In this document: piece by piece, positions 2,692 to 20,413 of the stretch | Position numbering within the stretch: the first letter of the stretch is position 1 | How the letters are laid out: every line of letters begins with the position of its first letter | Source: Desulfosarcina ovata subsp. ovata | GTDB lineage: Bacteria > Desulfobacterota > Desulfobacteria > Desulfobacterales > Desulfosarcinaceae | Assembly (NCBI RefSeq): GCF_009689005.1 | Contig: NZ_AP021879.1 | Coordinates: forward strand, 5,209,724-5,241,723 | DNA: 32,000 nt | Direction of reading: 5' to 3' | The notes under the pieces: model-generated | Told to the model about the DNA's origin: nothing | The model's database searches: none | The model's input: the letters and a program-made list of their open reading frames with translations, nothing else | Position numbers and translations under genes: made by a program

Positions 2692-2750
2692 AATCGGTCA
2701 AAACTCCTTGTCGTCAGCCATCGGTTTGAATCGCTGCCGCGTATCCCAGT

Positions 2751-2777
2751 GGCATAATGGGGACGTCTCTCATTATC
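2751..2777. repeat. REP-like palindromic unit at the 3' flank of the RAYT gene
   Basis: GGCATAATGGGGACGTCTCTCATTATC: ATAATG/CATTAT stem around a GACGTC-centred imperfect palindrome. It is the inverted partner of 3838..3858 and overlaps the transposase stop codon. Confidence 0.7.
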
Positions 2778-3805
2778 TAAATAATCGAATCAATCAGCAT
2801 GTATCCTTCGCATGCGGCTATGGTTTCGCCTCTTCTAACGCCATAGCCGATGCCCGACACCGTCATATCAAGTGCCCGGGCAAGTTCGGTCTGGGAAAGG
2901 CACAGCTCGTTTGTACACCAGTAGCAAAATAGACCCCGGGCATCCGCGCGTTTTTTGGGGCGGCCCTTTTGGAATATTTCTTCCTTATCGATCCCAAATA
3001 GCTCGGCGACCCTTTCGGCAACCCGGTTTATATCGTAGCCATGCCGTTTGAGTTCATAGCGCCGTTCAAACTGTTCTTTGGCTTGGGACAAAACCGACAA
3101 TACAAAATCCGAATCACCAAGAATGCGTTCATCGCCTTTTATACGGTCCATTCCTTTCAATCGCATCTTTTTAACTTCCGACCATCCGCCCAGGCTGCGA
3201 ACCAATCCTCCCCCGACCAATTCAGGACGACGTCCCATGGCAACTCCGGCTTGGACATAGTCAAGGTAAGCCTTGCGCGCCTTCGCCACTTTTTTTCCAA
3301 AACAGCCGAGCACATAAGCGCCGTCCTGCCAGCTGCAATCATCGGCTCCCACCAATAATCGGTGGCCGCTGAATGGATAATCCGTCAACGCCCTGAAGTC
3401 CTCGACCATGCCAGCACGCAATGGATTGAGATGAATATAGCGCACCAGTTCCAAAAGATAGGCGTCTTCCTGACAAATAATGGATTTGTACCGGTTCTGA
3501 AACAACTGGCCGTGGCGTTTATGTCGGCGGTTGAAACTTACCGCATATCCGGTGAGCAGCCGCTGCATCAAGCTTACGAGCCCGTCAGGGCCTGAGCGAA
3601 ATAAAAAATGGGCGTGGTTACTTAGCAAAACCCAAGCATAACATCTGGTTTGCGTCTGCGGAACCAACTGATCAAGCCGATCGACAAGATTCTGCTTATC
3701 GGTTGTATCCTGGAAAATGTTTTTTCTTTCGATCCCCCGGATGATCACGTGATGCAAAATCCCGGGAGCGTCTAATCGGGCTAACCGTGGCATGGCACCT
3801 TTCAT
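2777..3805 (-). CDS. REP-associated tyrosine (HUH/Y1, IS200-like) transposase with C-terminal DnaA-domain-IV-like HTH, copy 1
   Basis: ORF 2777..3940 trimmed to ATG 3805 (MKGAMPRLARL; a second ATG is at 3793). HUH motif SNHAHFLF and Tyr motif VRYIHLNPLRAG are present. The C-terminal segment LSQTELARALDMTVSGIGYGVRRGE is HTH-like. The gene is flanked by inverted REP-like units. Confidence 0.8.
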   Translation of the reverse strand: MKGAMPRLARLDAPGILHHVIIRGIERKNIFQDTTDKQNLVDRLDQLVPQTQTRCYAWVLLSNHAHFLFRSGPDGLVSLMQRLLTGYAVSFNRRHKRHGQLFQNRYKSIICQEDAYLLELVRYIHLNPLRAGMVEDFRALTDYPFSGHRLLVGADDCSWQDGAYVLGCFGKKVAKARKAYLDYVQAGVAMGRRPELVGGGLVRSLGGWSEVKKMRLKGMDRIKGDERILGDSDFVLSVLSQAKEQFERRYELKRHGYDINRVAERVAELFGIDKEEIFQKGRPKKRADARGLFCYWCTNELCLSQTELARALDMTVSGIGYGVRRGETIAACEGYMLIDSII

Positions 3806-3837
3806 ATCAAATATTGAGAGGCAAATCAAGTTGATTA

Positions 3838-3858
3838 GATAATTAGAGACGTCCCCAT
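3838..3858. repeat. REP-like unit at the 5' flank of the RAYT gene (inverted relative to 2751..2777)
   Basis: AGATAATTAGAGACGTCCCCAT has the reverse complement ATGGGGACGTCTCTAATTATCT. This matches ATGGGGACGTCTCTCATTATCT of the other flank at all but one position. Confidence 0.7.
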
Positions 3859-3938
3859 CCTCCCCTTCCCCCATCCTCCCCAAACGTTTGGTTGATGAAC
3901 GATTCGAAAGATTGCTGAAAGGATCGTCCCTCCTCGCC

Positions 3939-4010
3939 AAGTAACCGCGTATTGCCGATGACGGTGAGGCTGGAGAGCAGCATGGCCGTGGCGGCGATCC
4001 GTGAGGTGAG
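3939..4010 (-). pseudogene. Orphan copy of the last ~22 codons of the P-type ATPase gene (direct repeat of 13481..13552)
   Basis: 3947..4010 matches 13489..13552 at 61 of 64 positions, on the same strand. It encodes ...TAMLLSSLTVIGNT, like the ATPase C-terminus, and has no upstream coding continuation. Confidence 0.8.
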
Positions 4011-4032
4011 GAAGAGAAGATCTTTCGATGTT

Positions 4033-4093
4033 CAACAACGTTACTAATTCAGCCGACGAAAAAAGCCGCGCGGCTGAATTAGTCTTGTTGGGC
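4033..4093 (-). other. attC-like recombination site at the end of the higBA cassette
   Basis: The minus strand reads GCCCAAC (fits RYYYAAC) AAGACTAATTCAGCCG cgcggcttttttcgt CGGCTGAATTAGTAAC GTTGTTG (GTT core). It is a 61-nt imperfect palindrome. The R''-like end overlaps the last codons and stop of higA. Confidence 0.55.
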
Positions 4094-4387
4094 CAAGTGC
4101 TCTGACCAAGGTTTAATCTTATTAAGCAATGGTGCAAGAGTGATTTCTGCAACTTCCGTATCATATGCAGCCTGAGCACGTAGCCAATACCCGTTAGACA
4201 AACCAAAGAAACGGCACAAACGTAAATCCGTATCAGCTGTAATTGAACGTTTATTGGAAACGATCTCACTGATACGCTGGGCGGGAACACCAATCTCCTT
4301 GGCCAAACGATATTGGCTCAGTCCCATAGGCTTTAAGAACTCTTCTAACAAAATTTCACCTGGAGTGACGGGATCAAGTTTTTTCAT
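4079..4387 (-). CDS. higA: HigA-family antitoxin (XRE-type HTH)
   Basis: PGEILLEEFLKPMGLSQYRLAKEIGVPAQRISEIVSNKRSITADTDLRLCRFFG is the typical HigA/VapI HTH pattern. The gene lies 12 nt downstream of the toxin gene. Confidence 0.85.
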   Translation of the reverse strand: MKKLDPVTPGEILLEEFLKPMGLSQYRLAKEIGVPAQRISEIVSNKRSITADTDLRLCRFFGLSNGYWLRAQAAYDTEVAEITLAPLLNKIKPWSEHLAQQD

Positions 4388-4399
4388 ATTAACCTCTCC

Positions 4400-4678
4400 T
4401 CAGTGGTAATCCACGATTTCAACATTTTCTGCACCTGCATCTGTCCAATTGAAACAGACTCGCCACTGATCGTTGATGCGGATGCTGTATTGACCAGCAC
4501 GATCCCCTTTGAGCGCTTCAAGATGATTGCCGGGTGGTACTCTTAAATCATCAAGCAAATTAGCAATTTCGAGCTGCCTGAGCTTGCGCCGAGCGACCTT
4601 TGCAATGTTATTGAATTTCTTGACATTAGTGCCTCTTGATAGCGATTCAGTATATTTGCATTTGAATGATTTAATCAT
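4400..4678 (-). CDS. higB: HigB-family toxin (RelE/ParE superfamily, plasmid maintenance system killer)
   Basis: 92 aa, with the motifs LRVPPGNHLEALKGDRAGQYSIRINDQWRVCF...VEIVDYH characteristic of HigB. The toxin-first gene order is typical of higBA. Confidence 0.85.
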   Translation of the reverse strand: MIKSFKCKYTESLSRGTNVKKFNNIAKVARRKLRQLEIANLLDDLRVPPGNHLEALKGDRAGQYSIRINDQWRVCFNWTDAGAENVEIVDYH

Positions 4679-4685
4679 ATATCAC

Positions 4686-4714
4686 ATAATAACGCATGGC
4701 ATGATTAACGTCAA
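4686..4714 (-). promoter_or_regulatory. Candidate sigma70-type promoter for higBA
   Basis: The minus strand reads TTGACG-17 nt-TATTAT, with the -10 ending 7 nt before the higB ATG (a near-leaderless layout). This is a sequence match only. Confidence 0.3.
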
Positions 4715-4860
4715 ACGTGATTATGATTGCCAACGCCACGCTCATTAACTGCAAGGGCAATGCTGAATTTTAATTTGCCAAGGCCGCCCCGCCCTGGCGG
4801 TCTAATTCCGGGTAAAGGCACCGGTTACCCAATTATCAATTCCTTTGGGCATCATTTTCT

Positions 4861-4907
4861 TTGACAACGATTGAATGTGTATGTATTGTTAGATTGATAC
4901 ATATTCA
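4861..4907 (+). promoter_or_regulatory. Candidate vapBC promoter with overlapping operator-like inverted repeat
   Basis: TTGACA (4861-4866)-17 nt-TATTGT (4884-4889). The inverted repeat TGAATGTGTAT (4872-4882) / ATACATATTCA (4897-4907) brackets the -10. An AAGGAAGG SD precedes ATG 4925. Confidence 0.35.
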
Positions 4908-4924
4908 AGGAAGGCAAAAGAATT

Positions 4925-5119
4925 ATGCGAACCAACATTGTTATCGACGACGAACTTATCAATGAGGCCATGGCACTCAGTCAAATAAAAACGAAAAGGG
5001 CTGTGGTTGAAACAGGGCTCAGGCTTCTGGTTCAAATTAAAAAACAAGAACGGATAAAAAATTTCCGTGGAAAACTGAAATGGGAGGGGCATCTTGATAC
5101 ATTGAGGTCGGATCAATGA
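4925..5119 (+). CDS. vapB: VapB-type antitoxin (type II TA)
   Basis: 64 aa; MRTNIVIDDELINEAMAL... is typical of the small VapB family. The stop overlaps the vapC start (ATGA). Confidence 0.8.
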   Translation: MRTNIVIDDELINEAMALSQIKTKRAVVETGLRLLVQIKKQERIKNFRGKLKWEGHLDTLRSDQ

Positions 5120-5514
5120 TTTTGGTCGACTCATCCGTATGGATCAATTATTTCAATGGACTTTCAACCTGGCAGACAAACCTGCTTGACGACTACCTCT
5201 CCAGCATTCCCATTATTATTGGCGATTTGATTCTGACGGAAGTCCTCCAGGGGTTCAAATCAAACAAAGATTACGAAACCGCCAGGGATTTACTCAGTGC
5301 GCTTCAATTTCGCCAAATTGGGGGATATGCCGTCGCCATCCAAAGTGCTCAAAATTACAGGACCCTCAGAAAATCAGGGGTTACCATTCGAAAAACAATC
5401 GATGTAATCATCGGGACATTTTGTATCATGGAGGGATTATCGCTGCTCCATGATGATCGCGATTTTGACCCGATGGTATCATACCTCAACCTGAAAACAC
5501 CATCTCCGCAGTAA
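5116..5514 (+). CDS. vapC: VapC PIN-domain toxin
   Basis: MILVDSSVWINYF (first acidic PIN residue). Downstream residues (...GDLILTEVLQG..., ...LLHDDRDF...) fit the PIN ribonuclease pattern. There is a 4-nt overlap with vapB. Confidence 0.9.
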   Translation: MILVDSSVWINYFNGLSTWQTNLLDDYLSSIPIIIGDLILTEVLQGFKSNKDYETARDLLSALQFRQIGGYAVAIQSAQNYRTLRKSGVTIRKTIDVIIGTFCIMEGLSLLHDDRDFDPMVSYLNLKTPSPQ

Positions 5515-5516
5515 AA

Positions 5517-5578
5517 GCACCATCACCTGTAAAATCAGTCTCGTCTGAGAAGTAAGTAAGGCTATTGGCGGAAAAGAA
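5517..5578. repeat. Second, shorter copy of the vapC-downstream / ATPase-3'-end junction
   Basis: agcaccatcacctgtaaaatcagtctcgtctgagaagtaa parallels 13447..13486 (tccaccatcacccgtaaaatcagtcccgtctgacaagtaa). About 25 nt of weaker similarity to the ATPase 3' end follows. Confidence 0.5.
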
Positions 5579-5643
5579 TGTCCCCATTAGCCCCAGATCT
5601 AAAATTGTAAACCGGAAATCCGACGAACGTCCCCAATGCCCCC
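5576..5643. repeat. Two REP half-site remnants at the left junction of duplication copy 2
   Basis: gaatGTCCCCAttagCCCC (5576-5594) and gaacGTCCCCAatgCCCCC (5625-5643). Compare gagacGTCCCCAtcctCCCC (3846-3865) and gagacGTCCCCAactgCCCCCC (7706-7727). Confidence 0.4.
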
Positions 5644-6492
5644 GTGATTGCCGATCGCCGACTCGTAGCGTTCGATGGCCTTGGTAATGTATCCCTGCCA
5701 GAAAAGCACTTCGGAGTTGGCCAGGGCCACCTGGACGCGGACGTCAGCGGGGAAATCGTGGTCAGCCAGCATCTGCCAGGCCTGCTCCAGATATTCGTTG
5801 GCTTCGTCGGCCCTGGCGGTTTTGATGTAGGTCTTGGCGATCAGTACCATCAGCCTGACCTTGCGCACGGGGTCACCGACCGTGGCGCAGAATTCAAGCG
5901 ACCGTCCCAGGAATTTTCTCTGGATATCTTTGGACAGCGCTGTGTCCCGGCAGGTACAAAGACCGACGGTGGCATCGATGAAGGTTTCCTGCGCTACCGG
6001 ATCGAGCGTTTCCGTCTCCATGGCGTCCAGGACCATTCGATAATAAGCGGCGGCATCGATCGGCAGGTTCAGGCCAAGGCAGTAGTGCCCCGCCTGGACC
6101 AGTTCCTTGAAATGGCGCACAGGCAAACCGGAAACCTGGTAAACATAAGCGAGACTCAGCCATCTTTTGGTGTCATCGGGCAGGTGGTCGCATACACCGG
6201 CGATGGCCCGCCGGGCGGCGTTGTGCAGCGCCTTCGCCGGAACCCGGCTGATAAAGTCACCCGCCGCCTTGGGATCGGACAGATAGTAGTACCCGGCCCC
6301 CTTTTCCAAATACCGGTGCAAATAACCGGCTTTAACCAACGCCTCGACAAGCTGAAGAACCCGGACCGGGGCCAGGTCGGTAATGGCGCACAGCACATCC
6401 AGGGAAATCGGCGGGGGCAGCAGTGACAGAAGCAGATAAATTTCCTGATTCTTTTCATCCATGCCTGGGAACTGTTCCGCAACCCGGTTCAT
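5599..6492 (-). pseudogene. Truncated duplicate (first 283 codons) of the 970..2691 helical-repeat gene
   Basis: The translation is identical to the N-terminus of the 573-aa protein up to ...ESAIGNH. It then diverges into 14 unrelated residues where the duplication ends (5644). Confidence 0.8.
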
Positions 6493-6551
6493 AATCGGTC
6501 AAAACTCCTTGTCGTCAGCCATCGGTTTGAATCGCTGCCGCGTATCCCAGT

Positions 6552-6637
6552 GGCATAATGGGGACGTCTCTCATTATCGGCATAATGGGGACGTCTCTCA
6601 TTATCTAAATGGCATAATGGGGACGTCTCTCATTATC
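6552..6637. repeat. Tandem array of three REP-like units
   Basis: GGCATAATGGGGACGTCTCTCATTATC occurs at 6552, 6579 and 6611, with unit lengths of 27, 32 and 27 nt. Copy 1 has a single unit at the equivalent place. Confidence 0.9.
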
Positions 6638-7665
6638 TAAATAATTGAATCAATCAGCACGTATCCTTCGCATGCGGCTATGGCTTCGCCTCTTCTAACG
6701 GCATAGCCGATGCCCGACACCGTCATATCAAGTGCCCGGGCAAGCTCGGTTTGGGAAAGGCACAGCTCGCTTGCACACCAGTAGCAAAATAGACCCCGGG
6801 CATCCGCGCGTTTTTTGGGGCGGCCCTTTTGGAATATCTCTTCCTTATCGATCCCAAATAGCTCGGCGACCCTTTCGGCAACACGGTTTATATCGTAGCC
6901 ATGCCGTTTGAGTTCATAGCGCCGTTCAAACCGTTCTTTGGCTTGGGACAAAACCGACAATACAAAATCCGAATCACCAAGAATGCGTTCATCGCCTTTT
7001 ATACGGTCCATTCCTTTCAGTCGCATCTTTTTAACTTCCGACCATCCGCCCAGGCTGCGAACCAATCCTCCCCCGACCAATTCAGGACGACGTCCCATAG
7101 CAACTCCGGCTTGGATATAGTCAAGGTAAGCCTTGCGCGCCTTCGCCACTTTTTTTCCAAAACAGCCAAGAACATAAGCGCCGTCCTGCCAGCTACAATC
7201 ATCGACTCCCACCAATAATCGGTGGCCGCTGAATGGATAATCTGTCAACGCCCTGAAGTCCTCAACCATGCCAGCACGCAATGGATTGAGATGAATATAG
7301 CGCACCAGTTCCAAAAGATAGGCGTCTTCCTGACAAATAATGGATTTGTACCGGTTCTGAAACAACTGGCCGTGGCGTTTATGTCGGCGGTTGAAACTTA
7401 CCGCATATCCGGTGAGCAGCCGCTGCATCAAGCTTACGAGCCCGTCAGGGCCTGAGCGAAATAAAAAATGGGCGTGGTTACTTAGCAAAACCCAAGCATA
7501 ACATCTGGTTTGCGTCTGCGGAACCAACTGATCAAGCCGATCGACAAGATTCTGCTTGTCGGTTGTATCCCGGAAAATGTTTTTTCTTTCGATCCCCCGG
7601 ATGATCACGTGATGCAAAATCCCGGGAGCGTCTAATCGGGCTAACCGTGGCATGGCACCTTTCAT
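6637..7665 (-). CDS. REP-associated tyrosine (HUH/Y1) transposase with C-terminal HTH, copy 2
   Basis: ORF 6637..7875 trimmed to the ATG equivalent to copy 1 (MKGAMPRLARL). It differs from copy 1 at 9 amino acids, with the same HUH and Tyr motifs. The upstream in-frame extension crosses the REP unit and was discarded. Confidence 0.8.
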   Translation of the reverse strand: MKGAMPRLARLDAPGILHHVIIRGIERKNIFRDTTDKQNLVDRLDQLVPQTQTRCYAWVLLSNHAHFLFRSGPDGLVSLMQRLLTGYAVSFNRRHKRHGQLFQNRYKSIICQEDAYLLELVRYIHLNPLRAGMVEDFRALTDYPFSGHRLLVGVDDCSWQDGAYVLGCFGKKVAKARKAYLDYIQAGVAMGRRPELVGGGLVRSLGGWSEVKKMRLKGMDRIKGDERILGDSDFVLSVLSQAKERFERRYELKRHGYDINRVAERVAELFGIDKEEIFQKGRPKKRADARGLFCYWCASELCLSQTELARALDMTVSGIGYAVRRGEAIAACEGYVLIDSII

Positions 7666-7697
7666 AGCAAATGTTGAGAGGCAAATCAAGTTGATTA

Positions 7698-7718
7698 GAT
7701 AATTAGAGACGTCCCCAA
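7698..7718. repeat. REP-like unit at the 5' flank of RAYT copy 2
   Basis: AGATAATTAGAGACGTCCCCA is identical to 3838..3858 as far as the duplication boundary. Confidence 0.7.
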
Positions 7719-7726
7719 CTGCCCCC

Positions 7727-7818
7727 CGACAACCTGCTTTTTGTGAGGCTGCCGGATTTACGAAAGCGTAATTAAACGCTTGCAAATAATACAAAGTTGG
7801 CAAACGCACCGTTGTTTG
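7727..7818 (-). other. Weak attC-like candidate abutting the REP unit
   Basis: The minus strand reads AAACAAC ggtgcgtttgcc ... AAGCGT ttaatt ACGCTT ... cagGTTGTCG. The termini fit the AAC...GTT pattern of the better sites, but stem complementarity is poor. Confidence 0.2.
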
Positions 7819-7919
7819 GTGGTACTTGCGACACAGCCACTTAAAACAAAGCAACGCCTTGAAAAACAGTAACATAAAGCGAAACGGGAGGCAGCCTATG
7901 GCGAAAAATAATTAAAATG

Positions 7920-7981
7920 AAACAACGACTGCCAAAGCGTAAAGCGCTGTTTGCTGCATTCTGCAACAATGTTTGTTGATG
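7920..7981 (-). other. attC-like candidate
   Basis: The minus strand reads CATCAAC AAAcattgttgcagaatGCAGCAAACAGCGctttaCGCTTTGGCAGTC GTTGTTT. It is 62 nt, with the same AACAA...CGTTGT termini as the 4033 and 8191 sites. The stem is imperfect. Confidence 0.3.
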
Positions 7982-8190
7982 CAATGCTGATTTTACCAAA
8001 AAAACCACAAAAAACAAGGCGAGATGTTGCCGAATGCTGAAACAGTGAAACTTTTAAAATGCTTGCCGAAGCTGACGCTCAAAAAAGCAGCAGAAAACGC
8101 CGGCAAAAGCGATAACAGGCAAATATTTGCAACGCTGTTAGAAAAATAAGCGGTGGAAAACACACCCCAAAATTAAGCATGCGAGAAGGT

Positions 8191-8255
8191 TTACAACGCC
8201 CGGCTCTGGGGCTGCATGGAGCGCAGCGTAATGCAGTCCCTAGCAGCCGCTTGTT
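8191..8255 (-). other. attC-like site of the Thoeris-like cassette, larger part (interrupted by the group II intron)
   Basis: The minus strand reads AACAAGCGGCTGCTAGGGACTGCAT tacgctgcgctcc ATGCAGCCCCAGAGCCGGGC GTTGTAA. It is an imperfect palindrome with unpaired bases, as in attC. TTGTT on the plus strand directly precedes the intron 5' end. Confidence 0.5.
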
Positions 8256-10327
8256 GTGTGCCGGGCACGGCACACATCTTAAAAGTGAGCCAAGCATATC
8301 AGTCTGTTGGATCGCTTGGCAAGTCTTAGACCCAGCCCGATGGAGGCGAAGGGTGTAGCGACATGGCAACTGGGTATCCGGCAACGGTGCCTGGGGAGGA
8401 AGCCGCCCTGCTGCGGCAGGGCCGTCGCGAAGGTACGGGGTGACGAACAGAAATCGAGTCAGGCGCGCATCTGTGGGACCAGCCTGCAACACAAGGTTAA
8501 GTCCTCTATCCATCTCAGGCAGTGCTCGTATACTCGGCGCTTACGTACCGAAAGATGTGTGTTTACCCCGGGAGGCCCGCTGCATCTCGGGACTTGTCGT
8601 GTGAAATTGCCGGTAGGGGGGATTCCGGCCACCAAAACCCCCGGCATCGTCGGAAGACCGGCTCCTGACCGGCGATGAGCCAAACTCCGCTATGGAGAGG
8701 GACACGAAACCAAAGGATCCGGCGGCGGCAGATGATCCGAGTGAGCAAACCGCAAGGTGCGCCCACCGTGCAGCGGGAGTCAGCAGAGGGCATAATGTAA
8801 CCGGAGGAAACGAGATGCGCGAGCTACCCGCGGGTCAAGCGTAACAGGAGGCTCACCCCGGTGAAAGGCCCGAACGGTGCCCGGCCCGAATGGTACGGGT
8901 AAATGAAAATGACCATTAGGAGACGTGTACTTATGAACATAAAGCCACAGCAGATGGAAATGTTTGTAGCGTCGCGGCTTGCCGAAAGTCTGGGAGGCAG
9001 AGAGCAGTTGTTGGAGTTGATTCTCGAACGACGTAATGTGCTCAGAGCAATGAACCAGGTCGTTGCCAATAAAGGCGCCCCGGGTGTGGACGGCATGAAA
9101 ACCAACCACTTGAAAGGGTACCTGAAAAGGCACTGGCCGAAGATCAAGCAGGACCTGCTAAATGGGGATTATCGTCCCTTACCGGTCAGAAGGAAGGAGA
9201 TCGACAAACCGGATGGCGGTGTCCGCCTGCTTGGTATCCCCACGGTATTGGACCGCCTTATCCAACAGACGATAGCTCAGGTATTGGAGCAGATCTGGGA
9301 CCCGACCTTTTCTGAGTACAGCTACGGATTCAGACCAGGACGATCAGCCCATGACGCTGTCCTACAAGCCAAAGGCTATCTGCTGGACGGGTACACCCAC
9401 GTGGTTGACATGGATTTGTCCAAGTTTTTTGACCGAGTTAACCACGACCGGCTTTTAAGCCGGCTGGCCACCAGGGTCCGGGACAAACGGGTCTTGAAAT
9501 TGATCCGCCGGTACCTTACGGCCGGAACGATGATCGGGGGGCTTGTCAGTCCCAGCATAGAAGGAACGCCCCAGGGTGGTCCTCTGTCGCCGTTGCTCTC
9601 CAACATCGTACTCGATGAACTGGATAAGGAATTGGAGAAGCGGGGTCACCAATTCGTCAGGTATGCTGACGACTTCAGGATCTACTGCAAAAGCCGGAAA
9701 GCCGCCGAGCGTGTGAACAAGAGCATCACGAAGTTCATCACCGCGAAGCTCAAGCTCAAGGTGAACGAGGAGAAAAGCGCAGTGAGCCGACCATGGCTCC
9801 GCAAATTCCTGGGATTTACCTTTATCAGTATGTGTGGACAGACCAAGATCCGGATCCACCGGAAAACAATTTCACGTTTCAAGGAGCGAGTCCGGGAACT
9901 GACGAACCGTAATCAAGGGAGAAGTCTGAGCCAGATTATCAAAGATCTGAATCAGTACCTGATTGGCTGGTGGAACTATTATCGCCTGACAGAAGCCAGG
10001 CACCTGTTCAAGTCACTCAATGGCTGGATCATCCGCCGGCTGCGGTGCGTTGTCTGGAAACAATGGAAAAACCCCAGGACCAAGGTCCGAAACCTCAAAA
10101 AGCTTGGCATTGCGCATAAGGACGCCATGCTTTGCGGTAACGCCCGCAAAAAGTACTGGCGCATGAGCAAGGTCAAGTGGGTGATATTTGCTCTACCAAA
10201 CCGTTACTTCTTCGAACGAGGACTATTCCTGCCTGCTCAATAACCTTCCTGATCAGCCGAACCGCCTTGGTACGCGATCCGTATGCCGGGTGGTGTGGGA
10301 GGGGGTGGCCGCGAGGCTACTCCCTAT
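8256..10327 (+). mobile_element. Group II intron, bacterial class C (IIC, attC-targeting type); 3' end approximate
   Basis: The 5' end is GTGTGCCGGGCACGG. Domain V (10259-10297) reads GAACCGCCTTGGTACGCGATCCGTATGCCGGGTGGTGTG. From memory, both resemble the Oceanobacillus iheyensis IIC intron (GUGUGCCCGGCAUGG...; DV GAACCGCC...GGUGGUGUG with a CGC triad). Domain VI reads GGGAGG...GCUACUCCCUAU with a candidate bulged A. The RT ORF sits where domain IV is expected. Confidence 0.8.
8903..10243 (+). CDS. Group II intron reverse transcriptase/maturase (no endonuclease domain)
   Basis: RT blocks are present, including GVDGM, LGIPTVLDRLIQQ, SYGFRPGRSAHDA and the catalytic RYADDFRIY, followed by a maturase X-like tail (LIGWWNYY). 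Its short length fits En-less class C proteins. An alternative start is ATG 8933, preceded by AGGAG. Confidence 0.9.
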   Translation: MKMTIRRRVLMNIKPQQMEMFVASRLAESLGGREQLLELILERRNVLRAMNQVVANKGAPGVDGMKTNHLKGYLKRHWPKIKQDLLNGDYRPLPVRRKEIDKPDGGVRLLGIPTVLDRLIQQTIAQVLEQIWDPTFSEYSYGFRPGRSAHDAVLQAKGYLLDGYTHVVDMDLSKFFDRVNHDRLLSRLATRVRDKRVLKLIRRYLTAGTMIGGLVSPSIEGTPQGGPLSPLLSNIVLDELDKELEKRGHQFVRYADDFRIYCKSRKAAERVNKSITKFITAKLKLKVNEEKSAVSRPWLRKFLGFTFISMCGQTKIRIHRKTISRFKERVRELTNRNQGRSLSQIIKDLNQYLIGWWNYYRLTEARHLFKSLNGWIIRRLRCVVWKQWKNPRTKVRNLKKLGIAHKDAMLCGNARKKYWRMSKVKWVIFALPNRYFFERGLFLPAQ

Positions 10328-10362
10328 CCCGATAGGTGCAATCAGGCTATTAGTGAAAGGAA
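10328..10362 (-). other. Residual R''-side stub of the split attC, between the thsB-like stop and the intron 3' end
   Basis: 35 nt lie between the inferred intron end (…CTCCCTAT) and the TAA of the TIR-like gene. Joining it to 8255 restores ...GGG|AACAAGC, comparable to GCCC AACAAGA of the higA attC. Confidence 0.35.
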
Positions 10363-10932
10363 TTAACAAGGATAAAAGTACTCATCAGCCTCTTTCTTTG
10401 TATTTACCATAAAACCTTCATTTTCAAGCGCTTTTTTGATTAACGCTTTTTTGTTGGGAATATGGAGCGTTGGAACTGAATCCATTGAATCTCGGAATTT
10501 GGGCAATTTATCCCAAAGGTCTTTTATCTGCTTCTTGATCGTTTTCGATTGACAGTTAATGATGTCTGATTTTTCTTTATACTCTGGGTATACAACTATA
10601 ACCGGCAAGCCCAATGTATTAATGCCGTAGTCAATCTCTTCACGAATTGCCTTAGAGCTCTTCGTTACTGAACTTAAGAACAGTACTATGTTTTTGGATT
10701 TGCTTAGCCGCTCTCTAATTCTTGGCTTTAACGTTTTTTCCCAATCACTGCCATCTCTAACATTATAGTTTTTGTTGTGAGAATCATTAAATGGGAACGC
10801 AGAGTCGCCACCTTTCCAAGCTCTTAACATGCTATAGCTTACGAAGTCTTTCGTTGCATGAGCACCCAAACCTCCTTCAGTAAAAGGTTCGCTGACGTAA
10901 AACGCTGAATAGTTTCCGTTGCGATATGCCAT
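10363..10932 (-). CDS. thsB: TIR-like (DUF1863 / ThsB-type) protein
   Basis: The pattern YSAFYVSEP...YSMLRAWK...FPFNDSH...LKPRIRERLSKSKNIVLFLSSVTKSSKAIREEIDYGI..LGLPVIVVYPEY fits the ThsB / MTH538 TIR-like family layout. A strong AGGAGG SD precedes ATG 10932. The gene is AT-rich. Confidence 0.7.
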   Translation of the reverse strand: MAYRNGNYSAFYVSEPFTEGGLGAHATKDFVSYSMLRAWKGGDSAFPFNDSHNKNYNVRDGSDWEKTLKPRIRERLSKSKNIVLFLSSVTKSSKAIREEIDYGINTLGLPVIVVYPEYKEKSDIINCQSKTIKKQIKDLWDKLPKFRDSMDSVPTLHIPNKKALIKKALENEGFMVNTKKEADEYFYPC

Positions 10933-10974
10933 TTCTCCTCCTAATTCTATAAGTCTTGTTTTTAGCGCTAATAT

Positions 10975-11811
10975 TTAAAGCCCATTGTTGGACGATTTAA
11001 TATCGAGTAAATTAATAGTATCCATTTTATCTGGATGAATAATAATAGTTAGCTTTGCTGGATACTTGAATCGCATCTCACTAATCCTGAATGTCCAAAG
11101 CATGATCTTAAGCAAGTCTTCATCACTGATATTTTTGTGTTCTTTAATCCGCGTTATTCCTGATCCAAAAATCGGTACCGAAACGCTTTTTTGTGCGTAG
11201 ACTCTATTTACCCTGTCCCAGAAGTTAATAAGAAAGCTGAGATATTCCGGCATCGTTAACCGAGCTCGGTTTTTATCATCAAATTTCGAAAAAGCTGTTA
11301 AAAGATACTCACCATATACACAAATGGAGCCAATTTCGAAACGAGTCTTTTTCCCGCTCTTTCTCTCCGGATTTTCGCCAACAACATCTTCATCTTCGAA
11401 AGGATAGTTTTCGATATGACGATCAAGATCAACAACCGAGGTGTCAAGATGGCTATTAATGAATATGCCGTTCAGTGAGTTGCTAGATATAATTTTGTCA
11501 TCCACTTGCGTATCTAAATATTCATTAAATGCTATGACTTTAAAATCAGGTTGCTCAAATATATCCCCTTTTTTTATCGTGACATCACTTCCCTCGATTT
11601 TAGTGTGAATCTGCTGCAAGTTGTTAGATCTGACCCACAGAGCCACATAAACGAATAAAAGTAATATTAGAAATATGCCGCCCACCGCGAGCTTGCACTC
11701 TTTGGGTATCTCAACAAATATAAATGTAAGCGATGCCACTACACTTATTACAGAGACAACTTCAAGAAATTGCCTGAAAATTCTCTTATCCAGAAAATTT
11801 ACCTTTGCCAA
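10975..11811 (-). CDS. thsA: Membrane-anchored Macro-like domain protein (type II ThsA-like effector)
   Basis: Two N-terminal hydrophobic helices (VVSVISVVASLTFIFV; LAVGGIFLILLLFVYVALWV), then macro-like landmarks: KKGDIF, KVIAFNEYLDTQVD, PIFGSGITR. The start is TTG, with AGGGAG upstream. A 42-nt gap separates it from the TIR-like gene. Confidence 0.6.
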   Translation of the reverse strand: MAKVNFLDKRIFRQFLEVVSVISVVASLTFIFVEIPKECKLAVGGIFLILLLFVYVALWVRSNNLQQIHTKIEGSDVTIKKGDIFEQPDFKVIAFNEYLDTQVDDKIISSNSLNGIFINSHLDTSVVDLDRHIENYPFEDEDVVGENPERKSGKKTRFEIGSICVYGEYLLTAFSKFDDKNRARLTMPEYLSFLINFWDRVNRVYAQKSVSVPIFGSGITRIKEHKNISDEDLLKIMLWTFRISEMRFKYPAKLTIIIHPDKMDTINLLDIKSSNNGL

Positions 11812-11867
11812 AGGCTTTCTCCCTTAATCTTGCCAGCCTGATCTTGGCTGATACCATTTATACGCAC

Positions 11868-11874
11868 ACCTAAC
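11868..11874 (-). other. Candidate attI core / cassette junction (GTTAGGT)
   Basis: The minus strand reads GTTAGGT, a perfect fit to the integron core GTTRRRY. It sits between the first cassette ORF and the intI promoter. GTATAAC/GTTATAC repeats at 11894, 11958 and 11978 could be accessory binding sites. Confidence 0.35.
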
Positions 11875-11918
11875 AAGTTATTGTATTGTTTCGGTATAAC
11901 TACGAAAGTTAAAAAAGC

Positions 11919-11946
11919 TTGACATGGATTTCAGTTCAAATATAAT
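11919..11946 (+). promoter_or_regulatory. Consensus sigma70-type promoter upstream of intI
   Basis: TTGACA (11919-11924)-16 nt-TATAAT (11941-11946), about 57 nt upstream of ATG 12003. Confidence 0.45.
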
Positions 11947-12002
11947 CAGTTCTAACTGTATAACTCCAAATATGAATGTTATACGGAAAACTGGGATAAC
12001 CC

Positions 12003-13310
12003 ATGAAAGCTATTCCAAACCACCTACAAGCATCCTATGATGCGTATTTGACCGCAAAAGGCATTCCTAAGCAGCACCATTTCAATTATAGAAAGTGGTT
12101 GCGTTATTATCTGGACTTTTGCTCAAAATATGGACACATTCATTCCAACCCGCAAAGCCTGATTCAATTTGGCAATAAGCTGAAGGAAAAGAAACAGACA
12201 GCCTGGCAAATCAGGCAGGCGTCAGATGCAATTGCAATTTATTACGAAATTCAGGAACAAAAACAGGGGCCTCAATATAAATTTCACCAAGTAAACGAAA
12301 AAACAACCCAATTTACAATAAAAAAAGAAACCCCCAAAGCTCAAAACGCCGATTGGACGAACGTCTTCAAAGGTTTGACATCGGAAATAAAGCTAAGGCA
12401 CTACTCACCAAAAACGTTGGCCTCTTATAGCGGTTGGGCGCGAAAACTGCAAAGCTTTGTGAAGAGCAAAGATCCTAAACTGCTGTCATCCCAGGATGTT
12501 AAAAAATTTTTAACCCATCTGGCAGTGGAACGAAATGTATCCGCGTCCAGCCAAAACCAAGCTTTCAATGCACTTCTGTTTCTTTATCGGCACGTTCTTA
12601 AAACCGAATTCGGTGAATTAAAAAATATTCCCAGGGCCAAACGGAAACCCTATATACCTGCCGTATTATCTCGCGAAGAGGTTGACGCGGTTATTGGAAT
12701 GCTCCATGAACCGTTCGATTTAGTTGCCAAGCTGCTCTATGGATGCGGGCTTCGTTTATCTGAATGCCTGCGGCTACGTGTCCAGGACATCAACTTTGAA
12801 AGTGGCGTTCTGACCATCCACGACGGAAAGGGGAAAAAGGATCGTTCTGTTCCTCTTCCGAAGACGATCATTTCGGAACTAAAAATCCAGCTGGAAAAAA
12901 TCGTCGAGTTACACCAAAAGGACCTGGATATCGGATATGGCGGAACATTTCTTGTGGGAAGACTGGATAAGAAATACAAAAATGCAGCTAAAGAATTGGT
13001 GTGGCAGTGGTTTTTCCCAGCGAAAAACTTGACGCTTGTTCCCGATGAAGGCCAATACAGACGATACCACCTGCACCCTACCCACGTTCAAAAAGCCATA
13101 AGAACCGCCGTAAGAACGGCGAAAATTCCCAAGCGCGCATCGGCACACACGTTTCGTCACAGCTATGCAAGCCATTTGCTATTGGCCAACTATGACATCC
13201 GTACCATTCAGAAACTCCTTGGCCACAGCGATGTGCGCACAACCATGATTTACACCCACACAATAGAAAGCCGTACCATTAAAGACGCCGCCAGTCCGCT
13301 TGATTTTTAA
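12003..13310 (+). CDS. intI: Integron integrase (IntI-type tyrosine recombinase) with ~115-aa N-terminal extension
   Basis: It aligns along its length with IntI1 as remembered. Shared blocks include LYGCGLRLSECLRLRVQDI, HTFRHSYASHLL and LGHSDVRTTMIYTH. The IntI-specific insertion is present: LDKKYKNAAKELVWQWFFPAKNLTLVPDEGQYRRYHLHPTHVQ (IntI1: [41 protein letters not shown]). Confidence 0.9.
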   Translation: MKAIPNHLQASYDAYLTAKGIPKQHHFNYRKWLRYYLDFCSKYGHIHSNPQSLIQFGNKLKEKKQTAWQIRQASDAIAIYYEIQEQKQGPQYKFHQVNEKTTQFTIKKETPKAQNADWTNVFKGLTSEIKLRHYSPKTLASYSGWARKLQSFVKSKDPKLLSSQDVKKFLTHLAVERNVSASSQNQAFNALLFLYRHVLKTEFGELKNIPRAKRKPYIPAVLSREEVDAVIGMLHEPFDLVAKLLYGCGLRLSECLRLRVQDINFESGVLTIHDGKGKKDRSVPLPKTIISELKIQLEKIVELHQKDLDIGYGGTFLVGRLDKKYKNAAKELVWQWFFPAKNLTLVPDEGQYRRYHLHPTHVQKAIRTAVRTAKIPKRASAHTFRHSYASHLLLANYDIRTIQKLLGHSDVRTTMIYTHTIESRTIKDAASPLDF

Positions 13311-13329
13311 CAGCCACACATTGATCAAA

Positions 13330-13445
13330 ATACACGACCGGTTCAAAGTCAAATGGGAGGGTGACCTTGATACATTGAGGCCGGACCAATGAATTTGATC
13401 GACTTATTCGTATGGATCAATTTTTTCAATGGTTTTTCAACTTGA
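13330..13445 (+). pseudogene. vapBC remnant (3' end of vapB, first ~18 codons of vapC, then internal deletion)
   Basis: aaatgggagggtgaccttgatacattgaggccggaccaatga and atgaatttgatcgacttattcgtatggatcaattttttcaatgg parallel 5089..5170 of the intact vapBC. The sequence then jumps to the vapC-downstream sequence. Confidence 0.6.
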
Positions 13446-13465
13446 ATCCACCATCACCCGTAAAA

Positions 13466-15928
13466 TCAGTCCCGTCTGACAAGTAAAAGCGTATTACCGA
13501 TGACGGTGAGGCTGGAGAGCAGCATGGCCGTGGCGGCGATCAGTGGGGTGAGAAGGCCGCTCATGGCCACGGGGATGCCGATGAGGTTGTAGATCCAGGC
13601 ACACCATAGATTCTGGGTGACCTTCCGGTTGACCCGTCGGGAGAGTAAGAAAACATCCATCAACTGGGCCGGATCGCCGCGCATGAGGGTCAGATGGGCG
13701 GCCTCGGCGGCCAGGGCCTGGCCGTTGTAAAGGGCCACGGCCAGTTGGGCGCGGGCCATGGCGGCTGCGTCATTGATGCCGTCGCCCACCATGGCCGGCC
13801 GGTGTCCCTGTTGGATCAGTTTGTCGATGAAAGCGGCCTTGTCCGCCGGCAGCAGGCGCCCTTGGGCGACATCCGCACCAAGGGCCTCGGCCACTTCACG
13901 GGTAACCCGCTCGCCGTCCCCCGAGATGACGGCAATCGGACGGTATTCGGCCTTCAGGCTGTCGATCAAGTCCGGCACCGTTGGCCTGAGGCTGTCACCG
14001 AAATACAGGCTGGCCGCCGGCTGGCCGTCTACGCTTATGAACACTTGTGAGAGGGCCGTTTCCGTTTGCCCAACCGGTTTGCCCGTCGCCATTTCTGCAG
14101 TTCCCCAGGCAAACTGCCGGCTGCCGATGCGCAGGTTTTTTTTCTCCAAACGTCCCGCGATGCCATCGGAAGATACAACGATATCGTCGACGCGGGCCGG
14201 TGAGATGCCCTTTTCCCTGGCATGGGCGTTGATGGCGCGGGCGATTTCATGCTCCACGGATTGTTCCAGGCCGGCGGCCCAGGCGATCACCTGATCCGGA
14301 TCAAGGCTTGGACGGCATTCTACCTGACTCAGTTGCCAGCGGCCGCGGGTGAGCGTCCCGGTTTTGTCGAACACGATGCTGCTTGTCGTGCCGGCCCGTT
14401 CGAAGGCTTCAATGTCACGAACCAGGATGCCCCGGCGGCCGGCCAGGGAAATCCCGGCCAGGCGGGCCATGGGAATGGCCACGCCCAGGGCGCAGGGGCA
14501 GGAGATGACCATGACGGTCACGGCCCGAACCAGCGACTGGTGCAGGGAGTAACCGATCATGGCGCAGGCGATCCCCGTACCGGTGGCGAGCAGGACGATC
14601 AGGGGCACGAATCCGCGCAACATTCGGTCCGTGCGACCCTCGAAATCACTTTTCTGTTCCAGGCTGCGGGTCATAATGGCGATCATCTGGCCAAGCACGC
14701 TGGCCTCGCCAATGGTCTCCGCCATGGCGATCACACGGCCGTCGATGACCCGCGTACCGCTCTTGATGATGTCACCGGCCTTTACTGCCACCGGCCGCGG
14801 CTCACCGGTGAGGGCGGATTCGTCCACGCGGGCGCTGCCCGACACCACCCGCCCGTCCGCCGGCACGATTTCGTCGGCCTCGACGGCAAAACGGTCGCCC
14901 GCGGCCAACTGCCCGATGGACGCATACCGTCCCGCCGGCCACCCATCGGTGACGATGCGTACCTTGTTCGGCTGCAGGGCGAAAAAATTGTCCAGATCCC
15001 GGCGAACCCGGCCACGGGCCTGCAGTTCGAGCAGTTTGCCCAGCAGCACAAGGGTGATCAGCATGCTGGCCGTATCGAAGTACAGGTGGATGCTGCCCGT
15101 CAGCCAGTTGAAGAGGCTGTAAACGTAGGCGCAACCGGCCGCCATGCCCACCAGGGTCTCCATGCCCGGCGCCAGATGCACCACACCGAACCAGGCTTTG
15201 CGCAGCATGGGGCCGCCGCCGTAAACAAAGGCCACCGTGGCCATGAGAACAATGGGCAGGGAAATCTTGAACACAGCATCATCGGTGAGATCGGTGAAGA
15301 ACCCGGCGTACAGCGCCCAGGAGAGCATCATCACGTTGGCCGAGAAAAGGCCGGTGATGATCAGTCGGATCAGTTCCCGGCGAAAGGCCGATTGCCCGTC
15401 ACTGCCGGCCTCGGTGTCATGGACCGGGTACCCCAGGCGGGCGACGGTTTGGCGGATCGCTTCCGGATCGGTGCGGTCGGGCCGGTAATGGCAACGCAGG
15501 CGGTCGGTGGAGAAATGGCAGGTGGCCTGTTCCACGCCCTCCATCCGTGAAAGAGCCGTTTCGATCACCCAGGCACAGGCCGGGCACCACATGCCGTCCA
15601 CCTTCAGGTCAACACTCAGGGTGTCCGGTGGATCGGATGCGTGGCCTGCTGTCTCCGCTTGGGAGGGCGAGGCGTGCTTCGTCGGCGTGGTTTCCTGCAT
15701 GCGGCGCAGATCCGCCTCGCTGGCCGGAATCACCCCGGCGGCCACGCATTGGCGGAACAGGTCGCTTTCCCGGAAACGGGCCGGGTCGTCCACCTCGGCC
15801 GACTCCAGCAGCATGGTGTAGACCATCCGGCAGCCCTGGCAGCAGAAGGAGAGCGTGTGACCATCGATGGTGTGGGTGATCGTTCCGTAGCGTAACGGCA
15901 GACCACATAAATCACAGTGGGAGGGCAT
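13466..15928 (-). CDS. ccoI: Copper-translocating P1B-type ATPase of the CcoI/FixI type
   Basis: The N-terminus has the Cys-rich CDLCGLP...FCCQGCRMVY motif typical of FixI/CcoI. Also present: an MxCxxC-like GMWCPAC, the CPC motif SCPCALG, DKTGTLT and GDGINDA. ATG 15928 is preferred over the listed TTG 15940. Confidence 0.85.
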   Translation of the reverse strand: MPSHCDLCGLPLRYGTITHTIDGHTLSFCCQGCRMVYTMLLESAEVDDPARFRESDLFRQCVAAGVIPASEADLRRMQETTPTKHASPSQAETAGHASDPPDTLSVDLKVDGMWCPACAWVIETALSRMEGVEQATCHFSTDRLRCHYRPDRTDPEAIRQTVARLGYPVHDTEAGSDGQSAFRRELIRLIITGLFSANVMMLSWALYAGFFTDLTDDAVFKISLPIVLMATVAFVYGGGPMLRKAWFGVVHLAPGMETLVGMAAGCAYVYSLFNWLTGSIHLYFDTASMLITLVLLGKLLELQARGRVRRDLDNFFALQPNKVRIVTDGWPAGRYASIGQLAAGDRFAVEADEIVPADGRVVSGSARVDESALTGEPRPVAVKAGDIIKSGTRVIDGRVIAMAETIGEASVLGQMIAIMTRSLEQKSDFEGRTDRMLRGFVPLIVLLATGTGIACAMIGYSLHQSLVRAVTVMVISCPCALGVAIPMARLAGISLAGRRGILVRDIEAFERAGTTSSIVFDKTGTLTRGRWQLSQVECRPSLDPDQVIAWAAGLEQSVEHEIARAINAHAREKGISPARVDDIVVSSDGIAGRLEKKNLRIGSRQFAWGTAEMATGKPVGQTETALSQVFISVDGQPAASLYFGDSLRPTVPDLIDSLKAEYRPIAVISGDGERVTREVAEALGADVAQGRLLPADKAAFIDKLIQQGHRPAMVGDGINDAAAMARAQLAVALYNGQALAAEAAHLTLMRGDPAQLMDVFLLSRRVNRKVTQNLWCAWIYNLIGIPVAMSGLLTPLIAATAMLLSSLTVIGNTLLLVRRD

Positions 15929-15990
15929 GGAAGGAATCAATCGGGAATGCGAGAATTGGGGTTTGAAAAATCATCTCAGATGGATTGGGA

Positions 15991-16096
15991 AAATGCCAAA
16001 TGGCAAAATCCAAATGTCAAATGGTGGAATGCTGTCGATTTGAGGTTAAAATCGGCCCGATCCTTCAATTGACATTTGAGCTTTGTCATTTGTCAT
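15991..16096. repeat. Heptad-armed inverted-repeat element E1 (no ORF)
   Basis: Left arm: aaatgcc aaatggc aaaatcc aaatgtc aaatggt. Right arm: ttgacat ttgagct ttgtcat ttgtcat. The inner 12 nt are complementary at 11 of 12 positions. Junction motifs are GGTGG (16023) and CCTTCA (16062). A central hairpin reads CGATTT..AAATCG. Confidence 0.8.
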
Positions 16097-16104
16097 TGCC
16101 GGCG

Positions 16105-17140: not shown

Positions 17141-17425
17141 TCACTGTTTGCTGAAATAGAGGGCGAATGCCAGAACCGCCCCCGTTGCCCCCAATCCGGC
17201 GATTGCCAGGACAAAAAGACCGTAGATTTCGATCCGACTGAACCGGGTCGCCTTGACCGGCGGTGCATCGCCATCGTCCTTTAAGGGCAGATAGCGGGCC
17301 CGCTGCTGATCGCCAAACTGGCCGGTCTTGAACGCCCAGTAAAAGACCGCCAGGCTGATGACCAGGCCGATGGTGATGTAGGCGATGAAGTAGGGGTAGT
17401 ACATAATGGTAATGTCAAATTTCAA
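17141..17425 (-). CDS. ccoS: CcoS/FixS-family cbb3 oxidase maturation protein
   Basis: LAVFYWAFKTGQFGDQQRARYLPLKDD matches the CcoS signature (F.WA.KSGQFDD). The listed TTG start (17425) lies inside repeat E2, so ATG 17404 is the more likely start. Confidence 0.7.
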   Translation of the reverse strand: MKFDITIMYYPYFIAYITIGLVISLAVFYWAFKTGQFGDQQRARYLPLKDDGDAPPVKATRFSRIEIYGLFVLAIAGLGATGAVLAFALYFSKQ

Positions 17426-17512
17426 ATGACAAATGTCAAATGGTGGTTGACTCCCTTTTTAAATGTCAAATTTCAAATGACAAGTGTCAAATGGCGGTTG
17501 ACTCCTTTTTTT
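17411..17512. repeat. Element E2, left arm: two tandem 51-nt units of heptad repeats
   Basis: Unit 1: aatgtca aatttca aatgaca aatgtca aatggtg gttgactccc ttttta. Unit 2: aatgtca aatttca aatgaca agtgtca aatggcg gttgactcc tttttt. Segment 17423-17441 is complementary to 17906-17924 at 18 of 19 positions. Confidence 0.85.
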
Positions 17513-17871: not shown

Positions 17872-17900
17872 AATAAATCATTCTTAAAAAGGATAGAATA

Positions 17901-17936
17901 CCTTCAATTGACATTTGTCATTTGGCCTTTGACATT
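17901..17936. repeat. Element E2, right arm
   Basis: CCTTCA a ttgacat ttgtcat ttggcct ttgacat t. The first 17 nt (ccttcaattgacatttg) are identical to the E1 right arm. Confidence 0.85.
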
Positions 17937-17940
17937 TCGC

Positions 17941-20405: not shown

Positions 20406-20413
20406 ATTCCTAA

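Follow-up and report, generated by a model that had tools for sequence, protein, structure and literature searches.

Why does the 3' end of a housekeeping gene occur three times in and around a chromosomal integron of Desulfosarcina ovata subsp. ovata? The gene is ccoI, which encodes a heavy-metal P-type ATPase of the CcoI/FixI type, a copper ATPase, and the locus lies in a stretch of 32,000 nucleotides (nt) of contig NZ_AP021879.1 (assembly GCF_009689005.1, positions 5,209,724 to 5,241,723 of the forward strand), which we call the window and number from its first letter. An original prediction, made from the window's sequence, took the repeats for the attL/attR-like signature of an island that had integrated into the ccoI end and had arrived or expanded as a unit or in tandem steps. 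We find that the ~9.5 kb between the ccoI stop codon and the outermost copy is a mosaic insertion, specific to this lineage and assembled around a chromosomal integron. We consider the chances about even that single-crossover (Campbell-type) insertions or unequal exchanges, occurring stepwise at the ccoI end, left these copies as scars, and as the mechanism homologous or short-homology recombination between copies seems to us likelier than a dedicated att-site recombinase.

Copies of the ccoI 3' end within and beside the integron

The features on which the argument turns are these, with coordinates in the window.

13466..15940, minus strand: ccoI, intact, for the heavy-metal P-type ATPase (Pfam E1-E2_ATPase, HMA and ATPase-cat_bd; match to NCBIfam TIGR01525).
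13462..13555, minus strand: copy A, the native ccoI 3' end (last ~90 nt, stop codon and 4 nt beyond), delimited by alignments; its C-terminus, ...GNTLLLVRRD and stop, is that of the relatives.
13449-13465: the 17-nt flank that follows the ccoI stop codon, read from the sequence.
3918..4020, minus strand: copy B, a decayed ccoI 3' end (pseudo-copy) at the outer limit of the cassette array (68/73 match to copy A, then a diverged tail with two indels).
5518..5555, minus strand: copy C, the last 21 nt of ccoI and the 17 nt after its stop, contiguous with intact vapBC (35/38 match to 13449-13486; also present in the related chromosome AP021876.1).
4925..5514, plus strand: vapBC, a toxin-antitoxin module inverted relative to the array and with its own promoter (Pfam VapB_antitoxin and PIN).
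13324..13444, plus strand: a vapBC remnant, made up of the 3' end of vapB and the 5' end of vapC, in the gap from the intI stop to ccoI (13345-13444 against 5072-5171 at 85%, with a weaker extension to 13324).
12003..13310, plus strand: intI, an integron integrase of 435 amino acids (aa) (TIGR02249; Pfam Phage_integrase and Phage_int_SAM_4).
4030..4093, minus strand: attC1, the last complete attC (R'' GCCCAAC, R' G/TTGAAC; fold z = -3.5, the centroid pairing R'' with R').
5556..5613, minus strand: a probable attC remnant that abuts copy C, with R'' GTTTACAAT and an L''/L' hairpin and no R' box (R'' complementary to the cassette 2 start G/TTGTAAAC; hairpin predicted).

Repeat finding and self-BLAST (E = 1e-24) show that copy B (3938-4010) and copy A (13480-13552) are identical at 68 of 73 positions in direct orientation, and the match proposed in the original prediction (3947-4010 against 13489-13552, 61 of 64, same orientation) lies inside this one. 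Gapped alignment extends the homology to 13462-13555 against 3918-4014, past the stop codon and with two indels, and on the copy B side it may reach 4020, through a common CTTCTC and a 6-nt slip. The repeat is a real, direct-orientation duplication of the ccoI end. The proximal copy had been called the functional gene end, which is borne out, since the copy adjoining intI belongs to the intact ATPase open reading frame at 13466-15940 on the minus strand. This gene stands at the downstream end of the cco genes, with ccoP, ccoO and ccoN at higher coordinates, upstream of it. Direct repeats of the end of this gene bracket DNA with a GC content of 37-50%, as compared with 60-65% in ccoI. About 150-170 nt separate copy A from the intI stop (13310), in keeping with the ~155 nt given earlier, and copy B lies 16-19 nt from the last attC (4030-4093), a distance that had been put at 22 nt. 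Likewise, a third copy had been placed at 5517-5578; 5518-5555 is homologous at 35 of 38 positions, and the remainder, 5556-5578, is at best weakly so (10/14 with a 2-nt indel), with a weak extension possible to about 5571.

The comparisons below cover 80 genome and 80 metagenome loci whose ATPases share 47-73% identity with that of the window, together with D. cetonica, whose ccoI product raises this to 85% amino-acid identity, and AP021876.1, an 8.26-Mb Desulfosarcina chromosome that was reached through an exact VapC match. Might the match be due to chance, to a dispersed repeat or to an error of assembly? A single point favours such an explanation, the abundance of repeats at the locus. Self-BLAST gives E = 1e-24 for a repeat that is a recognisable ccoI reading frame, and copy C with its flanks is found at 99% identity in the independent genome AP021876.1. 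Self-BLAST also detects no further copies within the window beyond the three, all of which are tied to ccoI, and in none of the 158 related ATPase loci examined do the flanks contain a further copy of that locus's own gene end. A dispersed repeat was the outcome that the original prediction had named as fatal to it, and we judge this whole group of explanations extremely improbable.

Copy A has the features of a native gene end. Among the 80 genome relatives the ATPase C-terminus reads ...GNTL[L/R]LVRRD followed by stop, which copy A matches exactly, and its tail codons (GTC AGA CGG GAC TGA) are identical to those of D. cetonica, GTC AGA CGG being present in AP021876.1 as well. Because the D. 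cetonica tail is identical, copy A is native and was not visibly supplied by the element. In a five-way alignment copy A departs from the outgroups by a single, synonymous change (GGC to GGT). Copy B in the same alignment has substitutions of P to S, L to R and L to R at positions that are conserved in copy A, AP021876.1 and D. cetonica; it is also frameshifted and has lost the stop codon, and its last ~18 nt are far more diverged from copy A than its first 73 nt. Given these non-synonymous changes, the frameshift and the lost stop, set against the lone synonymous change on the side of copy A, copy B is a decaying redundant copy. We also considered whether rare codons mark the intact tail as element-borne (third-position GC of 4/10 in the last 10 codons; AGA at 0/60 Arg codons elsewhere) and rejected this, because D. 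cetonica and AP021876.1 have the same tail; the AT-rich last 10 codons are a trait common to the clade and therefore no mark of foreign DNA.

The flanks of the three copies fall into two arms. The gene-side arm, which is the ccoI body, is common to copies A and B, and the vapBC-side arm, which consists of the 17 nt and vapBC, is common to copies A and C. Copy B continues into host-side DNA and copy C is preceded by array DNA. Counted from the gene end, the boundaries of the pseudo-copies are unequal, as copy B runs from about -100 to +4 and copy C from about -21 (or -36) to +17 and then into vapBC. The segment present in all three copies is only ~25 nt long and coincides with the most diverged part of copy B.

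The vapBC module itself is an ordinary integron toxin-antitoxin cassette, since homologues of VapC with 92-95% identity are encoded in inverted orientation within long arrays whose small genes otherwise all point one way. The possibility that the 17 nt and the ccoI tail travel as part of this cassette was rejected, since the vapBC cassettes at two other loci (L164 and L165) diverge from that of the window ~4 nt after the vapC stop. Therefore, as the 17 nt and the tail are not found in generic vapBC cassettes, copy C is a copy of the ccoI-vapBC junction. The remnant of this module beside copy A has a 346-nt deletion in vapC and has lost the 5' part of vapB.

The locus in related genomes

Across the 160 related loci the cco side is syntenic with ccoI, and the DNA downstream of the ATPase gene is not conserved with that of the window. 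In none of the 160 do intI, vapBC, higBA or Thoeris genes lie beside the ATPase gene, and in several Desulfosarcina species a CoA-disulfide-reductase-like gene is found downstream of ccoI instead. An exact 45-mer of the repeat core has 0 matches in metagenome contigs, and a scan of metagenomes with the ATPase protein returned nothing above 73% identity. The closest IntI homologues (81-84% identity) lie in unrelated contexts and have no flanking repeats. The block had been described as flanked by the gene end and its second copy, and no genus-level relative has it; no empty site was found in a close relative, and the only close relative, AP021876.1, carries a degraded form of the same insertion.

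The comparison with AP021876.1 involves the remaining features of the array and of the DNA on its far side, as follows.

25-867, plus strand: transposase (DDE) of an insertion sequence.
970-2691, minus strand: truncated TPR/sigma54 regulator gene, a 573-aa open reading frame that is the N-terminal half of a 1047-aa activator intact in AP021876.1.
2742..3865, minus strand: copy 1 of a RAYT-like Y1 transposase, its gene at 2777-3790, bordered by REP-like inverted ends and separating copy B from the host regulator (Pfam Y1_Tnp and Bac_DnaA_C; NF047646 at 72.4 bits, just under the cutoff of 80).
3890..3912: left arm of a 20-22-nt inverted repeat, GTTGWTGAAC..TCGAAAGAT, that encloses copy B; the right arm, 4018-4039, overlaps the R' box of attC1 (19/22 match with two 1-nt gaps).
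4079..4678, minus strand: higBA cassette (match to TIGR02607 for HigA; HigB-like_toxin annotated on the AP021876.1 orthologue).
5640..7725, minus strand: a second copy of 1839-3865, inserted here, that comprises 900 nt from the 5' part of the regulator gene together with RAYT copy 2 and interrupts cassette 2 (repeats and self-BLAST; absent from AP021876.1).
7726-8190: 464 nt of DNA between the duplicate insert and attC3.
8191..8255, minus strand: attC3, continued at 10334-10340 beyond the intron, with R' GTTGTAA (constrained folds give an imperfect hairpin flanked by AAC and GTT).
8256..10333, plus strand: group II intron in the R'' box of attC3, antisense to the cassettes, with its reverse transcriptase/maturase at 8903-10243 (Rfam RF02001 at 8375-8562; match to TIGR04416).
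10347..11873, minus strand: cassette 1, with Thoeris genes for ThsA (Macro, 10975-11811) and ThsB (TIR, 10363-10932) (Pfam ThsA_Macro and ThsB_TIR; PADLOC ThsA1 at 1.8e-127 and ThsB1 at 3.9e-76).
11867..11874, minus strand: putative attI core, G/TTAGGTG, joined to cassette 1 (from the sequence; complementary to R'', CACCTAAC, of the cassette 1 attC once the intron is removed).

AP021876.1 is 95.9% identical to the window in ccoI, 99.3% in the regulator gene and RAYT and 99.2% over the segment that starts with attC1, includes higBA, vapBC and copy C and ends at position 5643. It lacks the insert with RAYT copy 2, attC3 with its intron, the Thoeris cassette and attI, and has ~2.95 kb of other DNA there. 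Of its intI 71 nt are left, fused at a CAC microhomology to the 17 nt and ccoI. Copy C has been kept, and copy B, its flank and the R' half of attC1 are gone; in place of copy B and half of attC1 stand five tandem 18-nt REP-like units, GAGACGTCCCCATCCCCC (8837-8927 of the retrieved stretch), a REP-like unit having expanded where the deletion took place, next to the RAYT gene. Beyond RAYT this chromosome encodes the full 1047-aa TPR-GAF-sigma54 activator, followed by methyltransferase genes, so the DNA beyond RAYT is host DNA. Because a decayed form of the locus is found in AP021876.1 too, the insertion is older than the divergence of the two genomes, and the window holds its less degraded version.

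It can also be seen from this alignment that ccoI (13449-15925) is less similar between the two genomes, at 95.9%, than is the adjoining accessory DNA (1095-5643), at 99.2-99.3%. This difference hints that the accessory block was exchanged recently or that a recombination boundary lies within ccoI.

In D. cetonica there is no integron at the ccoI end, and its homology with the window ends a single base past the stop codon. What D. cetonica does have, 1.35 kb beyond the ccoI stop, is a pseudo-copy of 70 nt in direct orientation, which corresponds to ccoI positions -240 to -170 (12121-12190 and 13707-13777 of the retrieved stretch). Since D. cetonica has a pseudo-fragment of its own, duplicative rearrangement at the ccoI end recurs in the clade, at another position of the gene. 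The D. cetonica pseudo-copy is preceded by a 17/19 hairpin that ends in TTGAAC.

Routes by which the copies could have arisen

Stepwise insertion by homologous recombination, the explanation that we favour, would proceed as follows. Incoming DNA that already carried the last ~100 nt of ccoI would have recombined within that homology, and the first crossover would have left ccoI intact (copy A) with the redundant copy B at the outer edge, where it then decayed. A second, nested event of the same kind would have duplicated the ccoI tail, the 17 nt and vapBC, leaving copy C and intact vapBC in the array and the decaying vapBC remnant beside copy A. Such a nested duplication agrees with the earlier suggestion that the third copy is a sign of repeated events. 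Later, a RAYT copy would have brought in 900 nt of the regulator gene and the intron would have inserted, and in the sister genome deletions would have removed intI and copy B. The arm pattern of copies A, B and C is what stepwise single-crossover insertion or unequal exchange would leave. What the sequences show directly is the anatomy of the locus, the native state of copy A, the decay of copy B, the absence of the block from relatives and its sharing with the sister genome; the order of events and the enzyme are inferred.

Several observations weigh against this explanation. The identities of the repeat pairs are uneven (regulator 100%, RAYT 97%, ccoI pieces 92-93%, vapBC 85%); the events were therefore separate, and their order is not recoverable. 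The diverged last ~18 nt of copy B are not predicted by a simple local duplication and would fit recombination between two ccoI ends that already differed. Plain homologous recombination accounts neither for the position of both pseudo-copies directly after attC-type sites nor for the inverted repeat that encloses copy B and overlaps an R' box, a repeat whose score was reached by 0 of 5000 shuffles and by 10 of 4529 window controls. Moreover, no circle, empty site or donor was observed.

One alternative is a true integrative island, in which the ccoI 3' end holds an att core (around TTACTTG) for a tyrosine recombinase, possibly IntI with its extra N-terminal domain; we regard it as unlikely. 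In its detailed form, to which we give equally little credence, two related elements, each with an attP arm of core, tail, 17 nt and vapBC, would stand in tandem, with A as attL, C as a hybrid junction and B as attR, and the platform would excise and reintegrate. The arm pattern fits such tandem accretion, TTACTT(G/C) occurs in all three copies, and intI lies about 150 nt from copy A. The closest IntI homologues occupy different loci, from which it follows that the platform has changed place during evolution; the tail of copy B is more diverged than its body, as would be expected if the ends differed before the exchange; and attI (ACTTG/TTAGG) can be set beside ccoI (ACTTG/TCAGA).

Against the island stand, first, the copies themselves. 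The tail of copy A is native to the clade and did not come with an element, and the boundaries of B and C differ, so that the proposed core rests on a single junction. The ccoI repeat has no attC-like fold (z = -0.23, or -0.2, for 13440-13560 and z = -1.2 for 3900-4020), and it has neither R''/R' boxes, nor a stable bottom-strand hairpin, nor an AAC...GTT frame. When the junctions are read directly, a GWT/GTT motif is absent from them, and that of copy C lacks even the G. The remaining points concern the other loci and the second element: the closest intI loci lack flanking repeats, vapBC is beside the ATPase gene in 0 of 160 loci, the second "element" has no integrase, and the D. cetonica fragment comes from a different part of ccoI. 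For these reasons a reading of the repeats as att sites of a site-specific system is not supported. Of the idea that the block arrived as a unit or in tandem steps, the stepwise build fits the arm pattern, and movement as an att-flanked unit is not supported. Taken as a whole, the evidence shows a block inserted at the gene end, from which self-mobility of the integron does not follow.

Genomic islands and other integrative elements insert at the 3' ends of tRNA or protein genes and leave attL/attR direct repeats, as SGI1 does at trmE and elements with dusA-specific integrases do. The present locus resembles them in having foreign low-GC DNA directly after a conserved intact gene, part of the gene end repeated at the opposite boundary, a gene for a tyrosine recombinase adjoining the intact end and a block that is absent from relatives. 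It differs from them in that its sole recombinase is a canonical integron integrase, whose known substrates are attI and attC, and in that the copy boundaries are unequal, no core of fixed position is common to the copies and the intact tail is native.

A local rearrangement inside an old integron that has always stood beside ccoI, with nothing arriving as a unit, is possible but in our view doubtful. We hold the same reserve towards its proposed routes, in which IntI-mediated exchange between an attC and a secondary site, imprecise excision, or RAYT/REP-linked events between sister chromosomes would have copied pieces of the ccoI end behind attC sites. Both pseudo-copies do lie immediately 3' of attC-type sites, and the inverted repeat around copy B includes an R' box. 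The same window holds a RAYT-linked 2-kb duplication, and the sister genome has its tandem REP-like units in place of copy B. Recombination of attC with genomic sites and imprecise excision are both known for IntI (bioRxiv 10.1101/2022.09.11.507474). The same source reports that attC x attG insertion and imprecise cassette excision alter bacterial genomes and that IntI uses GWT/GTT at genomic sites. That system offers a route from integron recombination to ordinary genomic DNA, and here host-gene fragments follow right after attC sites. Unlike in that system, the junctions here lack GWT and are offset by 16-19 nt from the R' crossover (B) or lack an R' box (C). The junction bases are not G/WT, and IntI secondary-site junctions were rejected on the ground that neither junction has the GWT/GTT motif. 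Versions that invoke tandem duplication require extra deletions to arrive at the present order, and local rearrangement leaves without account the fact that copy B is followed by host-side DNA and not by the 17 nt and vapBC.

The 3' arm of the attC remnant at 5556-5613 shows 10/14 homeology with ccoI positions -36 to -22. Because of this resemblance the attC-remnant reading of the segment is tentative, and the homeology could have guided the formation of the C junction. Together with the attC-adjacent pseudo-copies, the enclosing inverted repeat and the divergence of the copy B tail, this likeness leans towards some participation of integron recombination. A stronger claim, which takes two forms, is improbable: either the ccoI end is a recombination site for the IntI subfamily with a long N-terminus and the platform is a self-mobile circle, or the host fragments adjacent to attC sites are snapshots of chromosomal DNA drawn into cassette-like units.

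Residual homology was sought between segment 4679-5075 and the intI 3' end, between 7726-8196 and 4679-5075, between each of 5556-5640 and 7726-8196 and segment 3860-3940, and between attI and the flanks of copy B, and none was significant.

Integron anatomy, neighbouring repeats and significance

IntI scores 370.9 bits against TIGR02249 (cutoff 265), which places it in the IntI subfamily of integrases. It has an N-terminal extension of ~120 aa (12003-12370) with a second weak SAM-like stretch, and the length of 432-435 aa is found in thousands of homologues. Next to intI, the attI core at 11867-11874 is a candidate that rests on its complementarity to R''. The sites attC1 and attC3 are imperfect hairpins bounded by RYYYAAC/GTTRRRY, with co-oriented cassettes, and the third site is a remnant only; its R'' at 5604-5612 matches the cassette 2 start, G/TTGTAAAC, just as each cassette's R'' matches its own start. 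Between vapB and higB no attC was detected by folding (z = 0.19), constrained folds or alignment.

The first integron cassette is a complete two-gene Thoeris-type pair, an anti-phage system (10363-11811). The group II intron sits after TTGTT inside the inverse core of an attC, its ends having been deduced from the GTGTG 5' end and the rebuilt attC. Group IIC-attC introns reportedly insert in the attC inverse core (Leon and Roy 2009; Quiroga et al. 2008), and the intron of the window, placed after TTGTT and antisense to the cassettes, is like them. This likeness is limited to the intron inside the array and has no link to the ccoI repeats.

On the far side of copy B, homology of the regulator gene to AP021876.1 ends at 1095, beside the DDE transposase gene, and the regulator of the window was probably disrupted by the insertion sequence. 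The duplicate of 1839-3865 at 5640-7725 has 0 mismatches in 944 nt of the regulator part and then 27 in 1076 nt of the RAYT gene. The switch in identity falls exactly at a REP-like unit, and copy 2 has two extra REP units of 27-32 nt, a pattern that suggests either a recent copy or gene conversion, which may have been anchored on two older RAYT alleles. RAYT lies beside ccoI in D. cetonica and in only 3 of the 160 loci, all distant, and its orientation varies; this association is too weak for RAYT to be treated as a conserved ccoI neighbour.

Two other sets of repeats occur in the window. AT-rich repeats, AATGTCAAAT/GACAAATG, lie in direct and inverted orientation between the genes of the cco operon (15992-16097, 17404-17511, 17884-17943 and 20261-20415) and are partly conserved in D. 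cetonica. A tandem array of about 10 copies of the heptamer TACAGAA occupies 24313-24382.

Taken by its parts, the locus is of known kinds, being a chromosomal integron beside a housekeeping gene with a gene-end duplication at an insertion boundary. In Xanthomonas a sedentary chromosomal integron stands downstream of the housekeeping gene ilvD (bioRxiv 10.1101/2025.06.18.660453). The two are alike in that intI lies immediately downstream of a conserved gene, identity shifts abruptly at the gene boundary, and the array decays or turns over between close relatives, with intI truncated or lost and attC clusters left behind. They differ in that the gene end here is triplicated and brackets the platform; the text of the Xanthomonas paper contains neither "direct repeat" nor "duplicat" (bioRxiv 10.1101/2025.06.18.660453).

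The locus touches two open questions, namely the way in which an integron platform comes to a new chromosomal site and the way in which host DNA turns into material for cassettes. It provides a concrete, testable case in cultured Desulfosarcina, with a bracketed platform, a sister genome in decay and a third species that has another ccoI pseudo-fragment. If the ccoI end were a site for IntI, then intI, attI and the cassettes would excise and reintegrate as a circle, which would make this a self-mobile chromosomal integron. Even should the repeats turn out to be no more than common scars of recombination, one can see clearly at this locus how the end of a housekeeping operon is reshaped, yet not broken, by a sedentary integron, toxin-antitoxin modules, a RAYT element and an intron.

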